DNA of 64,000 bases from a virus. Taxonomy: Duplodnaviria; Heunggongvirae; Uroviricota; Caudoviricetes. Position 1 is the stretch's first letter. Every line of letters begins with the position of its first letter. Of the stretch, positions 8,627-32,790 are shown piece after piece. Below the pieces are notes generated by a model. It saw nothing but the letters and a program-made list of their open reading frames with translations, made no database searches and had not been told where the DNA came from. Position numbers and translations under genes: made by a program. The stretch lies in the IMG/VR virus record IMGVR_UViG_2541047712_000002. The stretch is one strand, 5' to 3'.

Positions 8627-9964
8627 TTAGTTGAAATCCAAAGAATCAAGTTCTGCTTTAAATTTATCGACAATTTTCTCAACTTCAACAACAATTTCAT
8701 CAATCACCTTTTCTTTGTGTTGATTAGAGTTGAGTGCTAAATAGGCATTTTCTAACTTATACCTAGACAGACTATTTTTAATCTCATCAGCGAATCTATT
8801 GGTGAAACCATTGGTTAACAGAATACTTCTCTCTCGGGGGGAAATAGGATACTTATCGTTGAGTTTTATTAGCCTCTTTAAATGTTTTTCATCCTTGATC
8901 ACCCTCACTTTATTACCTGCGATTCTAAGCTCCCAGCCTATAAAACCAGGTAACAAAGAGTTGAACTCAGCTACTTTATCGGCTGCATTTTCCATCCTCA
9001 GCTCAATGCTGTTTCGCATATGCATAGGTAGGTCATTAAATCTTTGAAGCAAATGTTGTCGGCAGGGGTTGTTGTAAGACCACAGAATTGCGAACGTAGC
9101 CCTTAAATGACGGTATCTTGAATCGATTTTAGGGGGCTCACGACCTCGAACCATTTCTTCAACATAAAACTCTACATCTTTTCGGTATTCGTTATCAAAT
9201 ATCACAGCAGCATAAGAGTCCAAATAATGAACTTTCGATATTGCTTCTTCAAAAAAAAGTTGGCCTTCGAAGAAGTTATACTTGCTTAGCAGGCTGTAAA
9301 GTCTCTTTGCGTCATAGGTTTTATTAGTGTCAATATTAAGGCCGAATGTAGCTATCAGCAGGCTTACATTAGGACTAATGCTGTTGCGCAGCTGTTCTAT
9401 GTAAGCTCTCTTTTCATAATCGGCTGATGACGGCGAATAGAAGTCTTTATCTAAATAATCAAGAATTAAAACTATGTGGTTAATATATTTAATGTAAACG
9501 GAGTTTTTGGTTACATGGTAATAAATAGCCTTGATGAGATTCATTCCCAGTTTTGCATTAAGTTCCCTATCATCCTGCAAGGTCTTGTTAACATCCTCAA
9601 GTAATCTATTATGCTGTTCAAGTAATATGCCGTACCATTCCTTAAAAGAGGCTTTTTTCATTTCAAGGAGTGAAGCTGCCGTCAGCCTAGTGGCCCTCAT
9701 TGCTGCCTTTGCACTATGCCTTGCCTCGTAAGCGGCCCATGCTGTGGCGAAAAATGCAAGTGAAGTGGCAAGTGTACCTATGACCTCTACGTTTTCCTTG
9801 ACGGTATCCCAGAAAATAATCATCACTGTCCCAAGTATGAGGATTAACAAAACAGGCATTTTATCAGTGTCTTTGGTTAATTTTGAAACTGAATGATACC
9901 TAATCGACCATACCATTTCAGCTAGTTTAAAGCTGTCTTGCCGGTTCTGGTGCGTCAACCTCAC
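8627..9964 (-). CDS. membrane-anchored hypothetical protein (AT-rich orphan)
   Basis: 445-aa ORF on opposite strand to all neighbours; two predicted N-terminal TM helices then a ~360-aa domain; flanked by terminator hairpins. Confidence 0.6.
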   Translation of the reverse strand: MRLTHQNRQDSFKLAEMVWSIRYHSVSKLTKDTDKMPVLLILILGTVMIIFWDTVKENVEVIGTLATSLAFFATAWAAYEARHSAKAAMRATRLTAASLLEMKKASFKEWYGILLEQHNRLLEDVNKTLQDDRELNAKLGMNLIKAIYYHVTKNSVYIKYINHIVLILDYLDKDFYSPSSADYEKRAYIEQLRNSISPNVSLLIATFGLNIDTNKTYDAKRLYSLLSKYNFFEGQLFFEEAISKVHYLDSYAAVIFDNEYRKDVEFYVEEMVRGREPPKIDSRYRHLRATFAILWSYNNPCRQHLLQRFNDLPMHMRNSIELRMENAADKVAEFNSLLPGFIGWELRIAGNKVRVIKDEKHLKRLIKLNDKYPISPRERSILLTNGFTNRFADEIKNSLSRYKLENAYLALNSNQHKEKVIDEIVVEVEKIVDKFKAELDSLDFN

Positions 9965-10065
9965 AAAGCCATTTCTGCTTAGTAACCAAACACATTAAAT
10001 AGGTAATGACTCACTTATTCATTTTAGCTATAGTCACGACACTTACTCACTTGAAAGGACTCAAT

Positions 10066-10191
10066 ATGGGAAACAAACGTAAACAGGCGCGTCGCGCAGC
10101 TCGTCAGGCAGTGAAGTCAAAGCCACGCATCCACGGCTACGAAATTGACACAATCATCGTTAATGAACAGCAGTTGCACGAGGTGAAGTGA
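10066..10191 (+). CDS. small basic protein
   Basis: MGNKRKQARRAARQAVKSK...; stop overlaps glutaredoxin ATG (TGATG). Confidence 0.3.
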   Translation: MGNKRKQARRAARQAVKSKPRIHGYEIDTIIVNEQQLHEVK

Positions 10192-10436
10192 TGAAAGTCG
10201 TTATCTACGGACGAGATAACTGCTCATACTGCAAACGTGCGGTCGAGCTGGCGAAGCAACTAAAGGGACATGGCTACGGTGATTATGAGTACATCGACAT
10301 CACTACTGCCGGTATCGATAAGGAAAAACTTAGCGAAATTATTGGTAAACCGGTAGAGACTATCCCCCAGGTATTGATCGATGGCCAACCGATTGGCGGA
10401 TACACAGAACTTGCAGCTTACATAAATTTGTTATGA
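10191..10436 (+). CDS. glutaredoxin-like protein (NrdC/NrdH-type redoxin)
   Basis: CSYC (CxxC) active site near N-terminus, ~81 aa, glutaredoxin fold pattern. Confidence 0.8.
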   Translation: MKVVIYGRDNCSYCKRAVELAKQLKGHGYGDYEYIDITTAGIDKEKLSEIIGKPVETIPQVLIDGQPIGGYTELAAYINLL

Positions 10437-10643
10437 CTAGTATGGCCGCTAGCCACACCATCCTTGATTAAAAAAAACACAATCGTTATAAGGAGCAATC
10501 TTCATTGTTGATAAGACGACTTAACTATACTTATCCTATACCTCAGGTGTTATGTTATAACATTTGATACTTGGGGAAGATTATGTTACTTAAAGCATTA
10601 AGGATTGGATTGATCGCAGGCATCTTTTGTACGTGTACAACGT

Positions 10644-10868
10644 ATGTCGCTGGAAAAAACAGTAGATGTTAAATTCCCGTCTGAAAAAGATAAAGTAGCA
10701 TACTCGGACGTCATAAAAGGTTTTGACTATAAAACTTATAAATTTCGCGCGAAGAAGGGACAACACCTTCAGATATTACTATCAAATGAATGGAGTGAAC
10801 ATATCCATATCTCTTTGGGCCAAGCATCGAAGATTAGATTGTTCTTGATAGAAGCTCACCTTGTCTAA
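10644..10868 (+). CDS. hypothetical small protein
   Basis: 74-aa ORF in AT-rich region. Confidence 0.25.
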   Translation: MSLEKTVDVKFPSEKDKVAYSDVIKGFDYKTYKFRAKKGQHLQILLSNEWSEHIHISLGQASKIRLFLIEAHLV

Positions 10869-11042
10869 ATGAGCAAGCGAAATATATGCTTCATGAATCA
10901 GGCGTATATTAATTACGTGTAAGACAAACACGAAATAATGCAAGGGAAGATTAAAAGTAAAAATACAATATTGAACGTAAAATACACTAAGAGTTAGTTA
11001 TACAGAAAATTCAACTAAGCCGGGCAGTACTGACGTTGTGTC

Positions 11043-11073
11043 AACCTTCCATTTTCATGGAAGGTTTTTTTTT
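11043..11073 (+). terminator. Rho-independent terminator
   Basis: 10-bp stem aaccttccat/atggaaggtt, loop tttc, followed by 7-9 T. Confidence 0.7.
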
Positions 11074-11533
11074 GCTTGCGATATAACAATAGCAAACACT
11101 CATAATCTAAAAGTATTGAGTCTACATAAAACTCACGCCTTAACCTCATGACAATCAGGCAAAAATAACAATAGAAACTATTTAAAATTTTATTTTTTTT
11201 ATATTTAATCTAAACATTATTTTATCTTAACCCTTTGTTTTTTAAGAAATTCATGCAGATCACAAATATTTGAAAAACAATATTATTACCTGGCTTGTGT
11301 GTTTTTTATTGATTTTAAACACCACGATTATTGTCTTTGTCAGAATAATAGTCTAGGTTATTTGGCTTGTGCAGATCTTTTATCTATAATCGTTGTTTGA
11401 TGGGTTTATATTTTTCAGTAAACTTCAAAAAAAAACACGAATGTCTAACTAGGTTATATTCAGTTCATTTTTGTCAAATTATTAAATTATCACCTGGCTA
11501 AACTGATAACATTTACCTACTCAGGTGGCTGAA

Positions 11534-11821
11534 ATGAGGATTTCGTTAAATGAAAAAATAAAGGGAGAACGGTTTAATACGCCGGGAAACATGTCAAGGG
11601 AGCACTTTAACTTACTAATTGAGCTATCACCCATAAGTAGCGAGAAGGTAAGATTAGCTTTATACGATTTTTTCGTTGACGGAGTAACACGTAAGGAAGC
11701 GTGCACCAGACACAATGTTTCACAAGGATATTTTTCTATTAGTGTAAGAAAATTCATTCAGGTTAATGATAGAGTAACAAAGGCTGTTAAATATTACTTG
11801 CCGAAATACTTAATTGTATAG
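11534..11821 (+). CDS. PapB/FocB-family fimbrial transcriptional regulator
   Basis: NMSREHFNLLIELSPISSEKVRLALYDFFVDGVTRKEACTRHNVSQGYFSISVRKF matches the PapB family pattern; sits upstream of the fimbrial subunit gene. Confidence 0.65.
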   Translation: MRISLNEKIKGERFNTPGNMSREHFNLLIELSPISSEKVRLALYDFFVDGVTRKEACTRHNVSQGYFSISVRKFIQVNDRVTKAVKYYLPKYLIV

Positions 11822-11932
11822 CTCTGTTTTTTGATAATGGAGGTGGTTAAACAATAAAAACCGTAATATAAAACACATTCAGTTCTTAATATTTTATTTT
11901 TCCATTTAATTTTATTTAAAGATAGGTTAGAT

Positions 11933-12574
11933 ATGAAAAAGCTGACTCTTATTGCAACGTTAATGGCATCTGCTATGTCATTCTCATCTCACGCTGCTAC
12001 AACATCAGCAAGCGTGAATATTACCGGCTCGATCGTTCCATCTGCATGTGCAATTAGCGCCAGTGCAAATGGAGGTACTATTGACTTTGGGAAAATCCTT
12101 TCATCAGAACTTGGTGAGCAGGGTGTTACACGTAAGGCAAAGAACGATACTCTTACTATTACGTGTGATAAAGATACTACGGCCGTAGTAAAAGTTAGTG
12201 GAAGCAATGGTGTAGATGGCAACACTTATAATTCAGATAAAGACTTCGTTAAAATTGCTGTGCAATTTACCGACGTAAATGTCACTGGCGGTAATGCTAC
12301 AAATAAATTCCTCGTATCTAACGCAGCATCTGTAGATTTAGATAATCTGACGGCAGCAGGTTTTACCACCGCAGCAGGAAATAAACCGTTATTCCCGTTC
12401 AATGGAAACTATCTCGCCGTTGCTGATACAAACAATAGCGTTGGTACATTTAAGACATTGACTGCAAATTATAGCGTCAGCGCGGTAGTGCAAAACGCTT
12501 CTGCTAAACGAGCTCTTACCCAAGGTGAACAAACCTTCGGTGGCGCAGTTACATTCGAACTGAACTATCTATAA
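11933..12574 (+). CDS. fimbrial major subunit (chaperone-usher pilin)
   Basis: signal peptide MKKLTLIATLMASAMSFSSHA, Cys pair, C-terminal donor-strand-like ...FGGAVTFELNYL. Confidence 0.8.
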   Translation: MKKLTLIATLMASAMSFSSHAATTSASVNITGSIVPSACAISASANGGTIDFGKILSSELGEQGVTRKAKNDTLTITCDKDTTAVVKVSGSNGVDGNTYNSDKDFVKIAVQFTDVNVTGGNATNKFLVSNAASVDLDNLTAAGFTTAAGNKPLFPFNGNYLAVADTNNSVGTFKTLTANYSVSAVVQNASAKRALTQGEQTFGGAVTFELNYL

Positions 12575-12626
12575 CCCATAATTAATAAACAGTAACGGAG
12601 TAACCTCCGTTACTGTTATAAAAAAC

Positions 12627-13295
12627 ATGATCAAAAGAATATTTCTACCTATATTAATGAGCATTCCATGTTCAGTATATGCTTTAGGAATGCAACCTGA
12701 AACAACCGTTTTAATATTTAACGAAGAGAAGAATGAAGCTTCTATTTCTGTTAAGAATACAAACAGTGTGCCAAGCCTACTTCAAACAAAAATTGTGGAT
12801 ATAGGGGAAGCTGAAAATGTTCTAGTATTATCTTCACCATCAATAGTTAAAATAGAACCAGGAGAGTCTCAAATAGTAAGATTCTTTTTGAAAAAGAATT
12901 CTGATTTTGATACTCAGATACTTAAGAGAGTAAGATTTTTAGGTGTGCCTGCAAAGCAAGAAAGCAACAAAGAGAATTCATCTTTAACTTTTACAGTAGG
13001 TCAAAGTATCCCTCTTCTGATAAACCCTGTGGGGCTAAAAGTTGATCGAGAACCATGGAAACACTTAACGTATAGTTTCGATGGAAGAAATATTATTATT
13101 TCCAACCCATCTAAATATATCGTTAGAATGTATCCTGAAGTTAAAGTAAATGGAAAAAAAATAAAAGTCGAGCAGTCATATATTACCCCTAGAACAAAGC
13201 TGACCATTAAGTATGAGAGACCGCCATCTGAAATAACAATTGTACCAGTTGGTTTATATGGTGAACTTAGAGATGAATATCAAATCAAGAATTAA
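12627..13295 (+). CDS. periplasmic fimbrial chaperone (PapD-like)
   Basis: signal peptide, position between pilin and usher. Confidence 0.7.
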   Translation: MIKRIFLPILMSIPCSVYALGMQPETTVLIFNEEKNEASISVKNTNSVPSLLQTKIVDIGEAENVLVLSSPSIVKIEPGESQIVRFFLKKNSDFDTQILKRVRFLGVPAKQESNKENSSLTFTVGQSIPLLINPVGLKVDREPWKHLTYSFDGRNIIISNPSKYIVRMYPEVKVNGKKIKVEQSYITPRTKLTIKYERPPSEITIVPVGLYGELRDEYQIKN

Positions 13296-15669
13296 AATAT
13301 CTAAAAAATTATTAGCCGTTTTTATCTCTTTATATGTATCAAATGTTTACGCAGAAGCCTATTATTTTGATGATATAGAGTTGAAAACTATTGGATTATC
13401 AAAAGATGCAGGTAACACCTTATTAAAATCTGATAGATTTCAACCCGGGACTTATCATGTAAATATAGTTTTAAATAATTTGCCTACCAATTACCATGGA
13501 AAAATTCTTATTAACAATAACGGTTCTCCTTGTATCACAGGTTCGTTGCTGGAGGACATAGGAATAAATATAAGCAGGTTGGCATTCGACCATGACTTGT
13601 GTTTGAAAGAGTCTCATAAGGAAGGTGTCTTTTTTTATACTAAACCAAAAAGCCAGTCCATTGAAATATATGTCCCTATTAGTTATCTTTTATCTAATGA
13701 AAGAACATATAGCCATGGTGGTACTGCAGCTATTTTTAACTATAACATTCATGCATTAAATTCACGAGGAAAATTTGGTAACACGAATAACTACACAGCT
13801 TTTCTTACATCCGGATTTAACACTGACGATTGGATATTTCGTAACAAAACTATCGTAAGTTCCTATGATGGAAATAACGACATTAAAAACTCTGAATTAT
13901 TTGCCCAAAAAACTTTTGATGGGAGTGGTAAAACGCTAAAAGTCGGTAGTATAGATTCATTTGACCAGTTTTATGGTATGTCTTTGATTGGTTTAAATTT
14001 GAGTCCAGAATCAACATTTTCTAGTGGAATGTCCACTACAATAACAGGTTTTTCTAATGATGACTCTCAAGTGGAGATCTATCAGGCAGGGCAGCTTGTG
14101 TATGTAGGGCAAGTACGGGCAGGCCGTTATAATATTGACTCAGTACCTGTTCTTAACACTCAAACCCCTTTCGAGGTTGTTTTAGTTAATCAAAATGGAA
14201 CGAGATCAAAAAGAACAATAACAACTGCGGAGGCACTTATAAACTTAAAACAAAAACAAAGCAATGGCTTTTCATTGTCTATTGGAAAAGCGAACGATTT
14301 TAAAAGCTCAATATTTAATGAACCTGTTGTATTAACTACGAATTATGGTTGGGATACCCTTGGTAATTACACTTTTAGCAGTGGCAGCTTAATTACAAAT
14401 CAATTCTATTCATTGGCTGGCAGTGTTACATACTCATCATCGAGTAAGAATAATATTACTTTAACTAATTATGTGTCGTATTTAGATTTCAAAGATAATT
14501 TGAATAAAAAACGTATTGGAAACAGTTCAAGCATAACTCTTTCAAATCAATTTTACGACAATGTTAAAATGACGAACGCTTTTATTTATAGAACAAGTGG
14601 CTATAGAGGGATTGAAGATTTAAGCTCAGATGATTTCTGGAATTATAAATGGCAACAAACTAATAGTATATTTGCATCGTTGAAAAGTTTTGGCACCTTT
14701 GGTCTTACATATTCATTGAATGAGAGAAGTGGTCATCGTGAAAACAGCTACGGTGTGTCATGGGGAACAAACATCTATAAAGCTTATTTGAGCACAAGCA
14801 TTCAAAAGCAGCGTGTAAAATATAAAGATGATTATTCTAATGAAACTAGGTTTTATGCCCAGCTATCAATTCCTTTATCCAATAACCAAGGGATAAACTC
14901 GTCATATTCTTCTGGCAAAAAATGGAGTCGGACTGCTGTTGACTATCGGCAATATAATAGTAACACATTTAACTATGGCCTCGGTTATGCAAATGAGCAA
15001 TATGCTTCCACATCTATCAATGCAGGTTACATAGAGGCATCTAAAACATTCAGGACAACTCATGTTGGAGCAAGATACAATTTTAACCAAAACTATAAAT
15101 CACTAGCAAGTTATGCAAGCGGTGGATTACTGATAAATAATAATGCAATCACTTTATCGCCATATGAAATTGGTGACACCTTTGCCTTGATAAGAGTTGG
15201 AAATTATCCCGGTATAGAATTACAAACACCAAACGGTAAGGTATGGACTGATAATCGAGGTAATGCTGTAGCCTCTAACTTGAATCCATATACTGCAAAC
15301 CAAATTCAAGTAGTACCAGAAAACTCACCTCGTAATATAGATGTAATGCAAGGCATAAAAAAGTCGACTCCATTTAAAGGAAGCGTTAATCAAATAAGAT
15401 TTGATGCTAAGAAAGTCCAGAGATTATTGGTATATGCAGTAGACGCGCTGAATAAACCTTTACCTTACAACGCCGAAGTAGTAAATCTGGATGATAACAC
15501 AATTATGGGATTTGTAGATCATGATGGTTTAATATTCTTCAGTGACATACCATCAAAAGCTGTTAAGGTAAATATCACACAAAATCAAAGTTGCATAATT
15601 GATTTTAGCAAGTATAAAAAAACAGAAGTTAATGAAATATTTAGCACGACACATCTAACTTGTAAATAA
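13273..15669 (+). CDS. outer-membrane fimbrial usher
   Basis: ~800 aa, signal peptide, N-terminal YYFDD...FQPGTYHVNIVLNN usher motif, C-terminal Cys pair; start taken at ATG 13273 rather than the overlapping track start 13240. Confidence 0.8.
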   Translation: MNIKSRIKISKKLLAVFISLYVSNVYAEAYYFDDIELKTIGLSKDAGNTLLKSDRFQPGTYHVNIVLNNLPTNYHGKILINNNGSPCITGSLLEDIGINISRLAFDHDLCLKESHKEGVFFYTKPKSQSIEIYVPISYLLSNERTYSHGGTAAIFNYNIHALNSRGKFGNTNNYTAFLTSGFNTDDWIFRNKTIVSSYDGNNDIKNSELFAQKTFDGSGKTLKVGSIDSFDQFYGMSLIGLNLSPESTFSSGMSTTITGFSNDDSQVEIYQAGQLVYVGQVRAGRYNIDSVPVLNTQTPFEVVLVNQNGTRSKRTITTAEALINLKQKQSNGFSLSIGKANDFKSSIFNEPVVLTTNYGWDTLGNYTFSSGSLITNQFYSLAGSVTYSSSSKNNITLTNYVSYLDFKDNLNKKRIGNSSSITLSNQFYDNVKMTNAFIYRTSGYRGIEDLSSDDFWNYKWQQTNSIFASLKSFGTFGLTYSLNERSGHRENSYGVSWGTNIYKAYLSTSIQKQRVKYKDDYSNETRFYAQLSIPLSNNQGINSSYSSGKKWSRTAVDYRQYNSNTFNYGLGYANEQYASTSINAGYIEASKTFRTTHVGARYNFNQNYKSLASYASGGLLINNNAITLSPYEIGDTFALIRVGNYPGIELQTPNGKVWTDNRGNAVASNLNPYTANQIQVVPENSPRNIDVMQGIKKSTPFKGSVNQIRFDAKKVQRLLVYAVDALNKPLPYNAEVVNLDDNTIMGFVDHDGLIFFSDIPSKAVKVNITQNQSCIIDFSKYKKTEVNEIFSTTHLTCK

Positions 15670-15683
15670 GCTTTGAGGATCTC

Positions 15684-16199
15684 ATGTTTAAATTTTTTAT
15701 ATTGACATGCTCTTTGTTTTTATGCACAACCTGTTTTGCAGCAGAGTGTTCTATAACCAGCTCGCCAAATAATATATCTTTAGGTGATTTTTCCTTTGGT
15801 TCTCTAACTAAGGAAAAGGTAGCAGATCGATATTATTACACCATGAAAAAAGATATTATGATTAGTGCAAAATGTAGGAATGCATCTAACATATCATTTG
15901 TCTATTCTGCACCATATAACGGTATGGGTTTTACAATTGGTGGTGTTGATGGTTATTATACAATCAAAGTAAATAAGTTTATAGTTAATGGGGTTAGTAG
16001 GGAAGTTAGGTATGTAGACACTAACAAGAAAGTTGATTTTATTTTACCTGAGACCGCAGTTCACACTGCGATTGGAGGTGAAGATTATAGCGTTGACGTT
16101 AACTTAATGCTAAACATAGCTTTCTATTTTAATCCAAATACATCCTTAGGCAATTACAGTATTTTTACAACTGGCGAGTTTCATCTCCAAGCTCTTTAA
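15684..16199 (+). CDS. fimbrial minor subunit / putative tip adhesin
   Basis: signal peptide MFKFFILTCSLFLCTTCFA, last gene of the chaperone-usher operon. Confidence 0.6.
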   Translation: MFKFFILTCSLFLCTTCFAAECSITSSPNNISLGDFSFGSLTKEKVADRYYYTMKKDIMISAKCRNASNISFVYSAPYNGMGFTIGGVDGYYTIKVNKFIVNGVSREVRYVDTNKKVDFILPETAVHTAIGGEDYSVDVNLMLNIAFYFNPNTSLGNYSIFTTGEFHLQAL

Positions 16200-16462
16200 T
16201 AGGAGCTTTTCGGCCATGATTTAACCACTATATTATGGCCATTTTTTACCCCCCCCCTTATCTTCACTGAAAAATTTTGATAGCACGCAATAAGGGTTAG
16301 GAGTGATGTTAGATTTTCTTCAGGCCCATAGAATGATTCCATACTTACTATGTATGGAATCATTACTAAAAATGAGTTACTTTGACTCTTGATCCTATAA
16401 GAATCTATGCCTAATATACTGTTTACTTATACAGTGTATCGACGTAACTCGGTGATTGTCAT

Positions 16463-25679: not shown

Positions 25680-25951
25680 AAGAATTATGGCGCTTGTTGA
25701 GGAAGTCACTCCTCTTACGCACTTTGTTTTGCCATGCCGGCAGTTAGCTTCTGCCTTTGACTATTCATGCGGCAACCCCGCATTTCGCCACAATGGGCAA
25801 TTCACTTTTATGGAATAAACTGGCCGTTGTGTCGATTTAATTAGCATGGCCTTACCATGCTAATTTATTCAACTTGTACAATCCTACAAATCTATCCACT
25901 CAGGCTTACACCGTCTTCGTTATTGTAGAAATGAGGATCATCAGCGTTGAA

Positions 25952-26167
25952 TCAGCTTAGAGCAACGACATTTGCTGCTGCTGGGCCTTTAGCACCATTC
26001 TCGATAGAGAATTCGACCTGCTGGCCTTCTTCCAAAGTGCGGAAATTATTACTCTGAATTGCCGAAAAATGTACAAAAACATCTTTACTGCCATCAGCAG
26101 GAGAAATAAAGCCAAAGCCTTTATCAGAGTTAAACCATTTTACTAAACCAGTCATTTTATTAGACAT
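25952..26167 (-). CDS. cold-shock protein (CspA family)
   Basis: [21 protein letters not shown]...[11 protein letters not shown] motifs; ATG at 26167 with RBS, rather than the longer track ORF. Confidence 0.85.
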
Positions 26168-26471
26168 AGATATTACCTTCTTAATTTTGTGAGCCACATA
26201 GTGCGGCGAGAATTTGATCTGTATAGATTGGGACTTACTTAGGCACTTAAGGAGGAGACTCACGAAGAAGGGAAATCAGAAGATAACACTGAACTGAGAC
26301 TGCTTTACTAAAACTGCTTACATAAGGTCTGTCTTGCAAACCAACGATGCTATTAACGCATACCCCTTCTTTTCATGCAACCTTTATTTTTCAAAGATAA
26401 CTAATTTTTGTCACCATTGGTTTAGTAAACGTTAACGAACCAGACGATGCCAGACACCTTTACAGAGAACA

Positions 26472-27599: not shown

Positions 27600-28031
27600 G
27601 TGAACACTGATATTTTTTCTAAAATCATGGCCGATCTGGAGTTCGACCGCGACAACCTTGAGGAAGTATGGCGTAAACAGCCACGGCTTTTAATGGAGTA
27701 TGGGTCAAAACTAGCGCAGGCAGATCGAGATGTCGCAGAGGCAAAACTTAACCTTGAAGCTGTTGAAGCAAAGCTATACGACACAGAGCGTAAGAACTTG
27801 AGTATGAACGGCATTAAGTTCAACGAGTCTGTACTGGACGCTAAGGTTAAAACAAACCCACAGTATCTGTCTAAACGGCAGAAGTTGGATGAAGCACGGC
27901 ACATCGCAGACATATACAAACATGCTGTCGCCGCCTTTTCGCATCGCCGAGACATGATCGTTCAGGCGTCAAAGATGGCCATCGTTGAATTAGAGCGATT
28001 AGGCTCTGAACGCTTTATTACTCCCCGTTGA
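27600..28031 (+). CDS. hypothetical coiled-coil protein
   Basis: 143-aa ORF upstream of SSB; start uncertain (GTG 27600 or ATG 27627). Confidence 0.4.
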   Translation: MNTDIFSKIMADLEFDRDNLEEVWRKQPRLLMEYGSKLAQADRDVAEAKLNLEAVEAKLYDTERKNLSMNGIKFNESVLDAKVKTNPQYLSKRQKLDEARHIADIYKHAVAAFSHRRDMIVQASKMAIVELERLGSERFITPR

Positions 28032-28148
28032 TTTTTGATAGATAATAAGTAAGTACTGATCTATCATTTAACAGCTCGAAAGAGCCACGAATGAACGAAA
28101 GCCCAACGCGCATAGCGCCATCGGCCAAATCACAACAAGGAGAAACAC

Positions 28149-29177
28149 ATGTCTAAGACATTACTTGATTTGCTTAACAAAACTCGTGAAGACATTGCCG
28201 CCAAACGTGGTAACAACGTTGATCTGACTCGCTTAAAAGACGGCGTCAACTATATCCGCATCTTCCCGAATAAAGACGACCCAAACGGTAAGTTCTTCCA
28301 GACTTTCGGTATGCACTACGTTAAGTATCAGAACGAGGAAGGTAAAGAAGCAACCAACGCTTATATTTGTGAGCAACATACTCACGGTCGCGCTTGTCAG
28401 CTATGCGAAATGGTGATGGAAGGTCGCGCTCGTCACAAGGGTAACAAAGCAATGGAAGAACGCATCGGTCAAATGCGTGCCACTCCTCGCTACCTGGTCA
28501 ACGGCATTCTTTCTGCTCGTGAGGATTTCGCAGATGCTGAGAAATGCCAGTTAATCGAGCTGCCGTCTACTGTATTCGATGATATCTGCAAAGCAATCAC
28601 CGAAGACATCGCTGATGATATCGGCAATCCACTGAGCAAAGAGGAAGGCTACGCATTCCTGATTAAACGTACTGGCTCTGGTCGCGATACCAAATATGAC
28701 GTCTCGCCTAAGCGTAAAGTCTACAAAGGCGATATCGAAGATAAATTCTGGAACACCCAGCATGATCTGATCGCATACGCAAATCAGGCTGATGAAACTC
28801 GTCTTCTGTCGACAGTTCGCACTATGGGTCGTCTGATTGGCATCGCTGCACCAACTGCCGCAGCATCTGCACCAGCAATTTCCTCAACCGCGAAAACATC
28901 GGCTGCGGCACTACCTGGATTTGGCTCTGTCACTGGTCATACAGAAGGAGCGACGGCTGTAGCAACCGCGCACACACCGGCTTCTGAACCAACCAGTCTG
29001 GTTGATGAAGAAATCCTCCGTGCCGTTGAAACTGAATTTAAACCAGAGGCAAGTTCCGCTGCCGTTGCCGTATCAGTCAAAGAGTCTGAAGCAGTCGCAG
29101 CGACATCTGTAGCAACCGCATCTGCGACGGAAGATGAAGGTCTGGATGACCTACTGAGAGAGCTGGACTCTCTGTAA
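28149..29177 (+). CDS. ssDNA-binding protein (T4 gp32-like), tentative
   Basis: Cys/His cluster CEQHTHGRACQLC, Ala/Ser/Thr-rich linker, acidic C-terminus DDLLRELDSL. Confidence 0.5.
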   Translation: MSKTLLDLLNKTREDIAAKRGNNVDLTRLKDGVNYIRIFPNKDDPNGKFFQTFGMHYVKYQNEEGKEATNAYICEQHTHGRACQLCEMVMEGRARHKGNKAMEERIGQMRATPRYLVNGILSAREDFADAEKCQLIELPSTVFDDICKAITEDIADDIGNPLSKEEGYAFLIKRTGSGRDTKYDVSPKRKVYKGDIEDKFWNTQHDLIAYANQADETRLLSTVRTMGRLIGIAAPTAAASAPAISSTAKTSAAALPGFGSVTGHTEGATAVATAHTPASEPTSLVDEEILRAVETEFKPEASSAAVAVSVKESEAVAATSVATASATEDEGLDDLLRELDSL

Positions 29178-29237
29178 TCCCATTACGTGACCAGTAAGGC
29201 GTCTACGGACGCCTTACTTTTTGGAAGGAATGTACCG

Positions 29238-30182
29238 GTGAATTATCTCTTCGTAGATGGCAATAGCCTGGGTTATTACCACCAACAATCTGACAAATTG
29301 CACAACGGCGAAATGGAAGTACAGGCTGCTTTCGGCTTTGTTAAGAACGTCCGTCGTTATGCCTCCATCCTCCATGTCCGACCTATGATTCTTTGGGATG
29401 GATTTAGTGACAAGCGTCGCGACTTTTACCCGGACTACAAAGCAAATCGCGACGACGATCCTGATATGAAAAAGATGAAGGAAGGCTTTGCTATCCAGAA
29501 GCCATACATCCTCAAAATGATGACCGCGCTTGGAGTTACCCAACTCATTGCAAAAGATGCAGAAGCGGATGATCTGGCCGGGCTGCTGGTATCCCGCATG
29601 GCACCGCAGCCAACCGTTGAACACATCTATCTGTTAACAGGCGATAGCGACTGGCTTCAGTTAGTTCGTGAAAACGTAAGCTGGGTAAGCCTGCGTGAAG
29701 ACGCCAAAAACAAGCAGGTTAATTTTGAGCAATTTGCGGAGCTGACAGGATTCGCCACGCCTCGCTCATTTTTGGAAGCAAAAGCATTACAAGGCGATAA
29801 ATCGGACAACATTAGCGGTGTTGGTGGCATTGGTGCTGGCGGTGCGAAAGAGCTGCTGCATGAATGGGGAAGTGTCGCAACGATGGTACGCGGCATCAAC
29901 GACGGCTCAATCGTGGTTGACAAAGGACGCCATAAGACCGCCTTCAACAAACTAGCGAAGAATGCCTTCAACGAGAAAACAGGCTGTCGAATGCTCGAAG
30001 CGTTCAAGAGAAACATCACGCTAATGAACCTGATTGAGACGAAGTTTCCGCCTACCGAAATCGAAACAATCAAAGGCAATCGTGACGTGAAAGCATTCGA
30101 GCAACTGTGCTACGAGCTGAATTTCCGTTCGTTCCTTGAAGACCTTGAAGTGTTTGTTCTTCCATTCGAAAGGTATTGCTAA
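29238..30182 (+). CDS. 5'-3' exonuclease / flap endonuclease (FEN, T4 RNase H-like)
   Basis: FVDGNSLGYY, LLTGDSDWLQL, QGDKSDNISGVGGIG motifs; start taken at in-frame GTG 29238 after AAGGAA. Confidence 0.8.
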   Translation: MNYLFVDGNSLGYYHQQSDKLHNGEMEVQAAFGFVKNVRRYASILHVRPMILWDGFSDKRRDFYPDYKANRDDDPDMKKMKEGFAIQKPYILKMMTALGVTQLIAKDAEADDLAGLLVSRMAPQPTVEHIYLLTGDSDWLQLVRENVSWVSLREDAKNKQVNFEQFAELTGFATPRSFLEAKALQGDKSDNISGVGGIGAGGAKELLHEWGSVATMVRGINDGSIVVDKGRHKTAFNKLAKNAFNEKTGCRMLEAFKRNITLMNLIETKFPPTEIETIKGNRDVKAFEQLCYELNFRSFLEDLEVFVLPFERYC

Positions 30183-30448
30183 TGCTTAAATCGATTATTA
30201 ATGGCGCTACAACCACCCCTACCCAACTGGCAAAAGAGATTGTCTTTTATCACGGTGAGTACGCTGTCATCGCACTGCCGTCAATTCTAGGCGCTGCCGG
30301 AATGAAAGCGACAGATCGCGAGTTTGGATTAGTCAGCGAGCAGGTCGTAAAAATCCTCGCTCGTGTATCCAGACTCCTTAACCACGATGCGATTGTATTC
30401 GACGAATCCGCCGCTTTAAAACGAATCAACGAAACAAAAGGAGCCTGA
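30176..30448 (+). CDS. hypothetical protein
   Basis: 90-aa ORF between exonuclease and recombinase. Confidence 0.35.
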   Translation: MLMLKSIINGATTTPTQLAKEIVFYHGEYAVIALPSILGAAGMKATDREFGLVSEQVVKILARVSRLLNHDAIVFDESAALKRINETKGA

Positions 30449-30450
30449 TC

Positions 30451-32790
30451 ATGGCAAAAGGAAAATCCGCACTGGCACTTGCTCTGAAAAAGAAAATCGG
30501 TAGCAACGACGAAATTCAGAAAGTAACTCATTGGATTGACACAGGCTTTCCTCCGTTAAACAAAGCGATTTCCGGTCGTTACGATGGCGGTTTCCCATGT
30601 GGTCGTATCGTAGAAGTATTCGGGCCACCAAGCGCGGGGAAATGTGTTACCGCAGACACCATGCTGCTGACGGAGCGTGGAATGGTAACAGTGAAAGAGT
30701 TGTTTGAGATTGAAGGGTACAAAGCGACATGCACTACTCGCGATGTAGAGCATAACGTTGGACTCATCAATGAAAATGGCGTGATAGAGAAGACCTCACA
30801 CCTGACATGGAACAACCGTCGCAAATTCAAGCGTATTAAGCTGGCATCAGGCGGTTACATCGAGGCTACGTTCCGTCACCCAATTCGTGTGGTTGACGAC
30901 TTAGGCAATATCGTCTGGCGGTATGCTGAAAAAATCAGTGTAGGCGACACGATTCCTTCAATGGTTGGCACACATCAATTCGGCGATCAGCACTTGGATG
31001 CCAATATCGCAAAACTGATGGGCTATTTAATTGCTGACGGATACGTGGCCTCTGAAAATTCTGTGCATTTTTCTAACACAGATCCATTCATCAAGGATGA
31101 GTACTACCGCCTCATTTCGCTGGTATCAGACAAGATGCCAGTTGCGAGAAAACATAACGGCTCGGAAGACCATGTGCTGTTTAGCAAAGAGGTGCGTTCG
31201 CTGCTTTTTAAAGAATATGGTCTGGAGTATGAGAAAGCTGCTGGCAAGCAGGTTCCGTTGAGTGTGCGTCGCGCCAATAGCGAGGCTCAAATTGCATTCC
31301 TTCGCGGCTACTTTGAGCTGGAATGCCACGTCAATGATGGTCGCTGCATTGAGGTTGTGAGCGCGAGTGGGCTGCTGCTACAGCAAATTCGCCTCATGCT
31401 CCTGAATCTGGGGATTACGTCAACTATCTCTGAAAAACACGTCGCGGGTTATGAAAATACATATTACCGGCTGTCATTCAGTGGCTCTAATTACGACCTT
31501 TTTCTGTCAACGATTGGTTTCGAATCTCCGGCACGTTTATCAGTGGCAACCAAACGGGACATTGGTTTTGACCGCACTTACTCAGGCTATGTTCCGCACA
31601 TCAGCGGCTTAGTGAAATCACTCTACGAGTCGCTCACCAAGACCACCCGTGAAGACTACGCTCTGGTAGACCACGTTATTGGCCGCGGCGATCGTGTCGG
31701 AATAGACAAACTGCGAGAAATCTATGTCTCCTTCATTGGCAGAAAGAATCGTTTTAACGAGCATCTGTTTGCACAACTGGCAGCGGTAATTGGCTCTAAC
31801 TTGTTCTACGACGAAGTCGTGGCTATTGAGGAAGGTGAAGCACCAACGTTCGACGTAGCGATGCCGGAAACACACTCTTTCTGGTCTAACGGGATTATCA
31901 GCCACAACACATTCCTTGCAACAGCAGCGATGATCTCCGCTCAAAAACAAGATGGTCTGGCGGTATTCCTCGATCATGAAAACAGTTTTGACGTTGGCCT
32001 GGCTGTCGCCAATGGCCTGAACGCAGATGAGGATGACGGTCAGTGGGTATACAAGCAGCCAGATACCTTCGAAGACTCTGTAGAGTTGATCGGCACAATA
32101 CTTAAATTGGTTCGTGATGAAGAGCTTATCCCCGAATCAGCACCAATCTGTATCGTGGCTGACTCTCTTGCGTCTATGGTTCCGAACTCCAAAGCCGAGA
32201 AGTTCGAAAAGATGGCTGAAGGCACAGCCAAAGACAAAGATCAGCTAAACATGAACGACAATACAGCACTGGCTCGTGCGACGAGTGCGAACTTCCCTAC
32301 TCTGGCTTTGTGGGCACGCAAATACAACGCCTGCATCATCTTCTTGAATCAGGTTCGCACAAAAATCGGTGTAATGTTTGGCGACCCTACTACGTCTCCA
32401 GGCGGCGATTCACCGAAGTTTTACGCTTCTGTGCGCATCCGTCTCGGTGCATCGGTGATGAAGGATGGGAAAGAGAAGATCGGCCAGGACGTAGGCGCAG
32501 AATGCATCAAAAACAAAGTTGCACCACCGTATGGCAAATGCACCTGGAAATTCTACTTCGATCCTACTCGTGGCCTCGACGTTATCGAATCGCTCGTCGA
32601 GTACATGCTGGAAGAAGGATACCTGCCAAAGAACGCCAGCGGGCGAGTTGAAATTGGTGACAAGAAATACACCAAATCGCAGATCGTCGAGATGTATCGG
32701 GAGAAGCCACTGGCTGAAATCATTGCGGCTTTGCAGGCAATCGACGACCGAAGAGCAAAAGACAACCCCACCGAGTCAGTAGAAGAGTAA
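30451..32790 (+). CDS. RecA-family recombinase (UvsX/Sak4-like) interrupted by an intein
   Basis: Walker A GPPSAGK is followed by Cys and ~422 inserted aa, then T resumes the P-loop; extein about 357 aa. Confidence 0.8.
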   Translation: MAKGKSALALALKKKIGSNDEIQKVTHWIDTGFPPLNKAISGRYDGGFPCGRIVEVFGPPSAGKCVTADTMLLTERGMVTVKELFEIEGYKATCTTRDVEHNVGLINENGVIEKTSHLTWNNRRKFKRIKLASGGYIEATFRHPIRVVDDLGNIVWRYAEKISVGDTIPSMVGTHQFGDQHLDANIAKLMGYLIADGYVASENSVHFSNTDPFIKDEYYRLISLVSDKMPVARKHNGSEDHVLFSKEVRSLLFKEYGLEYEKAAGKQVPLSVRRANSEAQIAFLRGYFELECHVNDGRCIEVVSASGLLLQQIRLMLLNLGITSTISEKHVAGYENTYYRLSFSGSNYDLFLSTIGFESPARLSVATKRDIGFDRTYSGYVPHISGLVKSLYESLTKTTREDYALVDHVIGRGDRVGIDKLREIYVSFIGRKNRFNEHLFAQLAAVIGSNLFYDEVVAIEEGEAPTFDVAMPETHSFWSNGIISHNTFLATAAMISAQKQDGLAVFLDHENSFDVGLAVANGLNADEDDGQWVYKQPDTFEDSVELIGTILKLVRDEELIPESAPICIVADSLASMVPNSKAEKFEKMAEGTAKDKDQLNMNDNTALARATSANFPTLALWARKYNACIIFLNQVRTKIGVMFGDPTTSPGGDSPKFYASVRIRLGASVMKDGKEKIGQDVGAECIKNKVAPPYGKCTWKFYFDPTRGLDVIESLVEYMLEEGYLPKNASGRVEIGDKKYTKSQIVEMYREKPLAEIIAALQAIDDRRAKDNPTESVEE
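30643..31908 (+). mobile_element. intein with LAGLIDADG homing-endonuclease domain
   Basis: starts with Cys codon tgt at 30643 right after the P-loop Lys; ends ...SHN at 31908 followed by Thr; LAGLIDADG-type blocks LMGYLIADGYV and FLRGYFELECHV. Confidence 0.7.

Follow-up and report, generated by a model that had tools for sequence, protein, structure and literature searches.

A predicted LAGLIDADG intein in the P-loop of a phage-plasmid RecA-like recombinase, with signs of recent homing among enterobacteria

An intein-type insertion in the Walker A motif of a RecA-like recombinase gene

The DNA analyzed here is a stretch of 64,000 nucleotides (nt) from the virus record IMGVR_UViG_2541047712_000002 (hereafter the window), whose sequence identifies it as an SSU5-like Escherichia coli phage-plasmid, and the subject of this report is one gene on its plus strand that encodes a RecA-like recombinase interrupted by a predicted intein. 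The insert lies in frame, contains no stop codon and separates Lys64 from the Thr of the Walker A motif (P-loop), giving the arrangement GPPSAGK/C...SHN/T, in which a slash marks a splice junction and the insert is bounded by Cys1 and by His-Asn/Thr. The gene and its parts are as follows.

30451..32790, plus strand: precursor gene of the intein-containing RecA-like recombinase, 779 amino acids (aa) and a stop codon (from the list of open reading frames (ORFs) and Pfam)
30451..30642, plus strand: N-extein, aa 1-64, with GPPSAGK as its C-terminal end
30622-30642, plus strand: Walker A residues GPPSAGK, aa 58-64
30643..31908, plus strand: intein, 422 aa, 47.6 kDa, precursor residues 65-486
30643..30645, plus strand: Cys1, N-terminal splicing nucleophile, block A, precursor aa 65
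30868..30879, plus strand: block B, TFRH (TxxH; T76, H79)
31015..31047, plus strand: first LAGLIDADG motif, LMGYLIADGYV, intein aa 125-135, with putative catalytic Asp132
31297..31332, plus strand: second LAGLIDADG motif, FLRGYFELECHV, intein aa 219-230, with putative catalytic Glu227
31846..31908, plus strand: blocks F and G, TFDVAMPETHSFWSNG (D404, H411) and IISHN (penultimate His421, terminal Asn422)
31909..32790, plus strand: C-extein, 293 aa and a stop codon, starting at Thr+1

The original prediction had placed the insert at 30643-31908, with a Cys at its start, SHN at its end and the Walker A motif resuming at Thr, and all of this matches the ORF translation exactly; its estimates of about 422 inserted residues and an extein of about 357 aa likewise agree with the computed 422 aa and 357 aa (39.0 kDa). 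The window's GPPSAGK aligns to GPESSGK of E. coli RecA (PDB 3cmu), and Thr+1 (31909-31911) has two roles, as the Thr of Walker A and as the nucleophile at the C-terminal splice junction. The full 779-aa protein is matched by each of the Pfam models RecA, LAGLIDADG_3 and Intein_splicing, and phrog_9666, a profile of 779 positions, aligns residue for residue with the whole precursor, intein and extein included.

Splicing residues and predicted fold of the insert

With the intein alone as query, Pfam Intein_splicing scores 46.1 bits (cut-off 35.8) over residues 9-422 and NCBIfam TIGR01445 (intein_Nterm) scores 35.3 bits (cut-off 24.5), so that the splice-junction hallmarks noticed at the outset, Cys1 and a His-Asn pair followed by Thr, are accompanied by hidden Markov models of the Hint domain that pass their curated cut-offs. 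The canonical class-1 splicing set is complete (C1, T76, H79, D404, H411, H421, N422 and T+1). Blocks F and G are the best-conserved part of the intein family (PTFDV.MPETHSFWSN..ISHN), and H-P of block B is retained in the family alignment A1. A search of PDB sequences with the intein matched the TliVMA, PI-PkoII and PI-PfuI inteins.

Structure prediction points in the same direction. An AlphaFold model of the intein, built from a 15-sequence alignment (a single-sequence model with a predicted local distance difference test score (pLDDT) of 38 was discarded), reached a pLDDT of 87.4 and a predicted template-modelling (TM) score of 0.88, and divides approximately into an N-terminal Hint part (aa 1-112), a LAGLIDADG core (116-295), a helical region (296-385) and a C-terminal Hint part (386-422). 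When the model was submitted to Foldseek, the best match was TliVMA (E 6e-26, TM 0.73), followed by PI-PfuI, PI-PkoII and PI-SceI, with matches down to E 1e-10; the intein crystal structures retrieved were 7qss, 1dq3, 2cw7 and 1vde, together with 1am2 and 4oz6 of the mini-intein type. The model and these matches thus display the Hint fold of class-1 inteins.

As for the embedded domain, the two LAGLIDADG-like blocks of the original prediction are found at the intein positions listed above, and Pfam LAGLIDADG_3 matches the intein alone in two stretches with 66.6 bits (cut-off 22.5). The acidic residues of both motifs are kept (D132 and E227), the catalytic role of E227 being putative and deduced from the motif register. 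Foldseek related the endonuclease core to I-DmoI at target-normalised TM values of 0.65-0.74, and to I-DmoI and I-Tsp061I taken together at 0.64-0.74, and the order of secondary-structure elements over aa 120-290 of the model agrees with the pseudo-dimeric alpha-beta-beta-alpha-beta-beta-alpha fold.

Taken together, these motifs and scores go far past what chance would produce, and we conclude with high confidence that the insert is an intein of class 1 whose embedded homing endonuclease has two LAGLIDADG motifs, and that it is seated in the Walker A motif of a RecA-like recombinase. Only slightly less firmly, we expect from the residues present that the window's own copy of the intein splices.

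Of the seven relatives whose sequence extends across intein residue 30, five keep a second Cys there (ATCTT, PNCKQ, ASCST, TSCTH, ATCST). It is a candidate disulfide partner of Cys1, and the pair would then make up a redox trap like those of certain other inteins.

Identity of the host protein

The extein alone scores 145.8 bits against Pfam RecA (PF00154; cut-off 27), in keeping with the earlier proposal that the split P-loop, interrupted between Lys and Thr of Walker A, belongs to a RecA-like recombinase. Among solved structures it matches bacterial RecA with E ~1e-34 and UvsX with E 2e-9, and PHROGs places it in phrog_97, the 'UvsX-like' recombinases, with E 1e-91. The threshold of the bacterial RecA equivalog model TIGR02012 was missed (132.6 vs 325.3 bits), as was that of NCBIfam NF007072, 'intein-containing recombinase RecA' (97.7 vs 1024 bits); RefSeq nonetheless applies the product name of NF007072 to the orthologues from Enterobacter and Citrobacter. 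These scores indicate that the host protein is a phage-type RecA-like recombinase and not an orthologue of cellular RecA. The ratio of non-synonymous to synonymous substitution rates (dN/dS) of the extein is ~0.01 in comparisons that include intein-bearing alleles, and therefore the host recombinase gene is not decaying.

The comparison also exposes an inconsistency of product names in the databases. At least five are in use across RefSeq and GenBank for the same 779/780-aa protein ('LAGLIDADG family homing endonuclease', 'recombinase RecA', 'RecA', 'hypothetical protein' and 'intein-containing recombinase RecA'), and for most E. coli copies 'LAGLIDADG family homing endonuclease' is the sole name, so that the recombinase goes unseen.

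Distribution of the intein and of intein-free alleles

Of 5426 complete E. coli genomes, 250 (~4.6%) have the recombinase gene, and all 252 matches are on plasmids; no chromosomal match, host recA included, was found in these 5426 genomes. The intein, counted where a match covered at least 80% of the intein-containing query, occurs in 114 of the 250 carriers. Among the plasmids of PLSDB, 666 have the recombinase gene and 248 the intein, distributed over genera as follows.

Escherichia: intein 123, recombinase gene 189
Klebsiella: intein 71, recombinase gene 242
Enterobacter: intein 41, recombinase gene 90
Citrobacter: intein 6, recombinase gene 20
Salmonella: intein 1, recombinase gene 42
Yersinia: intein 0, recombinase gene 63

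In Escherichia phage CMS-2020a and in further plasmids of E. coli, the gene has no intein and is an unbroken ORF of 357 codons that reads GPPSAGKTFLATAAM. The eight intein-free alleles that we examined (L001 and L006-L012) all read continuously across the site as GPPSAGK/TFLATAAM, and in three of them, the E. coli phage-plasmids L001, L006 and L007, the protein is identical at 357/357 positions to the predicted spliced extein. Comparison of the insertion site with intein-free homologues had been named beforehand as a test of the intein proposal; natural intein-free alleles exist, and the insert is therefore not a native domain of the family.

PLSDB also holds diverged or partial intein copies (CP043243.1, NZ_CP075717.1 and CP057895.1), comprising an E. 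albertii copy that is 93.7% identical and has no annotated coding sequence, and two E. coli plasmids with 46% and 19% intein coverage. Decay or disruption, which the homing cycle predicts, may explain these copies.

Signs of recent lateral spread

The intein-bearing alleles compared with the window were those of E. coli LF82/Cyrano, Enterobacter hormaechei, Klebsiella pneumoniae and a Klebsiella phage. Across the phage-plasmids of Escherichia, Enterobacter and Klebsiella, DNA identity amounts to 97-100% in the intein and to 80-86% in the exteins. Correspondingly, synonymous divergence (dS) between E. coli and Enterobacter or Klebsiella is 0.064-0.068 for the intein, whereas it is 1.3-2.3 for the exteins, and even the extein dS within E. 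coli (0.187, window against CMS-2020a) exceeds the intein dS across genera (0.064-0.083). The history of the intein's DNA is thus far younger than that of the polymorphic locus that hosts it.

The transition between the two levels of identity is abrupt. In 60-nt windows along the comparison with the Klebsiella allele, matches rise from 43-53/60 in the exteins to 54-60/60 in the intein at both junctions, and the step lies no more than ~25 nt from each intein junction in both the Enterobacter and the Klebsiella background. Furthermore, the flanks GCG GGG AAA/intein/ACA are common to all five intein-bearing alleles compared, whereas intein-free alleles of the same lineages use other synonymous codons, differing at -7, -4 and +3:

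Klebsiella, intein-free: GCT GGT AAA/ACC
Enterobacter and pHCM2, intein-free: GCC GGT AAA/ACC
E. coli, intein-free: GCA GGG AAA/ACG

When the window's two intein flanks were fused into a 60-nt query and searched by BLAST in PLSDB, an empty site with the exact intein-type flanks was found in 0 of ~280 uninterrupted junctions, the best match being 98.3% with one mismatch. In L006 (E. coli SP15 plasmid AP024133.2, junction at locus 301-1374), which has no intein, the 5' flank equals that of the intein-bearing E. coli haplotype, and the sole difference from the fused flanks is at +3 (ACG, not ACA); at least one further PLSDB plasmid, CP025897.1, has a single junction mismatch. L006 could represent a naive recipient haplotype or, alternatively, loss of the intein via recombination with an empty allele.

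Break-points at the very ends of the intein, in backgrounds that diverged independently, together with flank bases that travel with the intein, are the footprint expected of gene conversion initiated by an endonuclease, with short co-conversion tracts. We therefore read the identity contrast, the sharp boundaries and the shared flanks as the signature of recent homing.

Proposed mechanism and alternative explanations

By analogy with class-1 inteins, whose chemistry is well established, the following course of events can be proposed. In the 779-aa precursor the P-loop would be split and the ATPase inactive. An N-S acyl shift at Cys1, aided by T76 and H79 of block B, would create a thioester that is attacked by Thr+1 (transesterification), and cyclisation of Asn422 (succinimide formation), aided by His421 and by D404 and H411 of block F, would then release the 47.6-kDa intein/endonuclease and leave a 39.0-kDa recombinase with the whole GPPSAGKT loop. 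Once two phage-plasmids shared a cell, the endonuclease, acting through D132 and E227, would cut intein-free alleles at the GK/T codons, and repair of the cut allele would copy in the intein together with a few flanking bases.

The first question that this scheme raises is whether the endonuclease still operates. We think it probable that the homing endonuclease is still active, and we give about the same credence to active, endonuclease-driven homing taking place at present between phage-plasmids of different enterobacterial genera. The dN/dS of the whole intein (~0.18) and of its endonuclease part (0.15-0.23) fits ongoing selection for function, even though these ratios are built on just 11-13 non-synonymous and 18-23 synonymous differences. 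Several further points weigh against our interpretation. The second motif reads FELEC, with Cys in place of the consensus Gly, and some relatives are missing the acidic residue at the E227 register (ECGC). The junction comparison covers 13 alleles rather than the whole population, plus the one 60-nt junction BLAST, and, given L006, +3 is the only base that is clearly intein-linked in the E. coli lineage. Finally, our literature search found no experiment showing splicing or DNA cleavage by this intein.

The alternative that fares best is that the intein is genuine and its endonuclease is now inactive, the present distribution having arisen by vertical descent and by ordinary homologous recombination between co-resident phage-plasmids. 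SSU5-like phage-plasmids do encode a recombination module (UvsY, SSB, exonuclease, RecA, SbcCD and RuvC) that could be imagined to serve such exchanges, endonuclease activity is predicted from sequence only, two distant family members (P0011 and P0016) have no first LAGLIDADG motif, and PLSDB contains the few partial intein copies mentioned above. However, random break-points would not be expected to end the block of identity within ~25 nt or less of both junctions in Enterobacter and again in Klebsiella; nor does an inactive enzyme sit easily with two intact LAGLIDADG motifs, preserved acidic residues and the low endonuclease dN/dS, or with a cross-genus intein dS that lies under the extein dS within a single species. 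For these reasons we regard it as unlikely.

A different proposal concerns splicing rather than homing. The intein that occupies the same site in the RadA protein of Pyrococcus horikoshii (Pho RadA) has been shown to work as a conditional post-translational switch, and the window's intein, since it too splits the P-loop, could control the phage-plasmid recombinase in the same way and so not be purely selfish, an idea to which we attach little probability. Redox state, temperature or DNA damage might be the triggers, and such a switch might tie the recombinase to the choice between plasmid maintenance and lytic growth. The locus offers a natural and genetically tractable E. coli system for intein homing, and possibly for conditional splicing.

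It is also conceivable that the intein is genuine and that the copy in the window is defective in splicing, its precursor being a dead end. Splicing of this particular copy is a prediction, and the window differs from the E. coli MS 145-7 protein at four intein residues (I154V, Y158H, H206N and A232T in precursor numbering); none of these substitutions falls in blocks A, B, F or G, however, and every canonical residue from C1 to T+1 is present, making this very unlikely.

Least probable of all are two further readings, in which the insert would be a domain native to this recombinase family or a free-standing endonuclease gene whose arrival disrupted and killed the recombinase gene. They could appeal to the NCBI pipeline's naming of the whole E. 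coli protein solely as a homing endonuclease and to its scores far under the TIGR02012 and NF007072 cut-offs, but they are effectively ruled out by the intein-free alleles and by the strength of purifying selection acting on the extein. In addition, the reading frame continues through the insert, which has Cys1 and His-Asn/Thr at its borders, scores above cut-off as a Hint domain and is precisely absent in most homologues; three intein-free proteins equal the predicted spliced product, and the host gene is not decaying.

Relation to known inteins

The preferred interpretation, a splicing-competent intein with a homing endonuclease, can be set against what is already on record. RecA inteins with the label 'insertion point c2 (65-486)' appear in Table 1 of Topilina et al. 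2015 (PMC4513877), their hosts being eight E. coli strains, among them MS 145-7, two Enterobacter strains (Enterobacter cloacae and Enterobacter sp.) and one Salmonella enterica. The window protein is identical to the MS 145-7 plasmid protein at 775/779 positions and its intein coordinates are equal (65-486); the element is therefore already known, and by this comparison the window intein is the RecA/RadA c2 intein catalogued in 2015. In that paper, c2 is treated as a bacterial RecA intein, phages are not mentioned and the mentions of plasmids read there refer to cloning vectors, whereas in our analysis the gene lies on plasmids in all 252 E. coli matches and the window is an SSU5-like phage-plasmid; the paper offers no splicing or homing data on c2, just a remark on unpublished modelling (PMC4513877). 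Our literature search found no other paper discussing this intein.

The present analysis extends this record by placing the intein on phage-plasmids, by giving its frequency in E. coli, Klebsiella and Enterobacter, and by supplying evidence from populations that it homed recently. What has been called the first E. coli intein resides in the recombinase of an SSU5-like phage-plasmid and not in cellular recA, and phage-plasmids of this type are also widespread in Klebsiella and Enterobacter. As an intein, it is a textbook case: the Lys/Thr position in the P-loop is a 'classic' insertion point (PMC5050341), and the P-loop is the commonest intein site (PMC4513877; PMC4760082).

To place the intein in its wider family, 1.84 billion representative proteins were searched exhaustively with HMMER, yielding 1634 proteins at E <=1e-10, while a profile search of a word-indexed protein database gave 20 matches and added almost nothing. 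Among 110 end-to-end relatives of the intein, which are the proteins retrieved, mostly from the best 150 HMMER matches, the arrangement GK/C...HN followed by T or S is found in 101 and a RecA-like extein in 80. The nearest relative beyond the enterobacterial phage-plasmids is 47% identical. Some distant relatives are without the first LAGLIDADG motif, whereas the window copy retains both.

A parallel case is the Pho RadA intein (c1), which interrupts a RecA/RadA-family ATPase at the same point, the end of the P-loop, and keeps it inactive until spliced (PMC4513877). It is, unlike the window intein, a mini-intein of ~170 residues with no endonuclease from an archaeal hyperthermophile, the sequence similarity between the two is marginal (PDB 4e2u and 2lqm, E 0.1-0.14), and c1 and c2 have been judged independent invasions (PMC4513877). 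Among phages, fHSPT3 of Bacillus has a homologous intein in its RecA (GGGK/C...HN/S), and Staphylococcus phages Twillingate and Twort have one in their UvsW-like helicase (NGGK/C...HN/T in Twillingate), in each case at the P-loop site that is used in the window; those of fHSPT3 and Twillingate are 33-34% identical to the window intein over the full length. The mycobacteriophage intein TerL1-a likewise occupies the P-loop (GK/T or GK/S) of a phage ATPase. These phage P-loop inteins differ from that of the window in host protein or in clade (Herelleviridae of Firmicutes; mycobacteriophages).

The same architecture, a Hint domain split by a two-motif LAGLIDADG endonuclease, is shared with TliVMA, PI-PfuI, PI-PkoII and PI-SceI, which are 10-22% identical to the window intein and reside in other hosts (V-ATPase, ribonucleotide reductase and DNA polymerase of archaea and yeast). 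The RecA inteins of Mycobacterium tuberculosis and M. leprae (points a and b) are likewise located in RecA, but elsewhere than the P-loop: point a corresponds to 252-691, and point b lies near residue 210 at the monomer-monomer interface (PMC4513877).

Replicon context and neighbouring genes

Over the recombinase gene, the window shares 98.5% identity with Escherichia phage PhiR41_1 and 98.3% with phage Cyrano, whereas the homologues of Salmonella phage SSU5 and of Klebsiella phages are diverged. Window and Cyrano are colinear except for one cargo island. According to the Cyrano annotation, the RecA gene closes a recombination module, following a UvsY-like mediator, a gp32-like single-stranded-DNA-binding protein (SSB), a 5'-3' exonuclease and a small ORF; the corresponding ORFs of the window are:

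27600..30448, plus strand: upstream recombination module (ORFs, with names from the colinear phage Cyrano)
within 27600-28031, plus strand: UvsY-like mediator (Cyrano annotation)
28149-29177, plus strand: gp32-like SSB (Cyrano annotation)
29187-30182, plus strand: 5'-3' exonuclease (Cyrano annotation)
30176-30448, plus strand: 90-aa ORF (ORF list)

A full-length match to the cspA thermoregulator RNA (RF01766) is found at 25927-26345 on the minus strand; it scores 187.6 bits, the gathering score being 78. An ORF on the same strand, encoding a cold-shock-domain protein (25952-26263; domain E 4e-33), overlaps this match. The Cyrano counterpart of this stretch, from the DNA polymerase III alpha gene to hicB, has no gene annotated.

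The cargo island spans 8.4 kb (window 7909-16331), has a low G+C content (~31-40%), takes the place of 1.9 kb in Cyrano and is situated between the tRNA cluster and the integrase gene. A PADLOC scan of the island gave zero matches. It contains:

7912-7998: tRNA-Tyr
8360-8446: tRNA-Ser
8627-9964, minus strand: 445-aa ORF with no Pfam or PADLOC match
11933-12574: fimbrial subunit
12627-13295: PapD-type chaperone
13240-15669: usher
15684-16199: 171-aa ORF

The island thus includes a chaperone-usher fimbrial operon, and an adhesin operon carried as cargo by a phage-plasmid is possibly of interest in itself.

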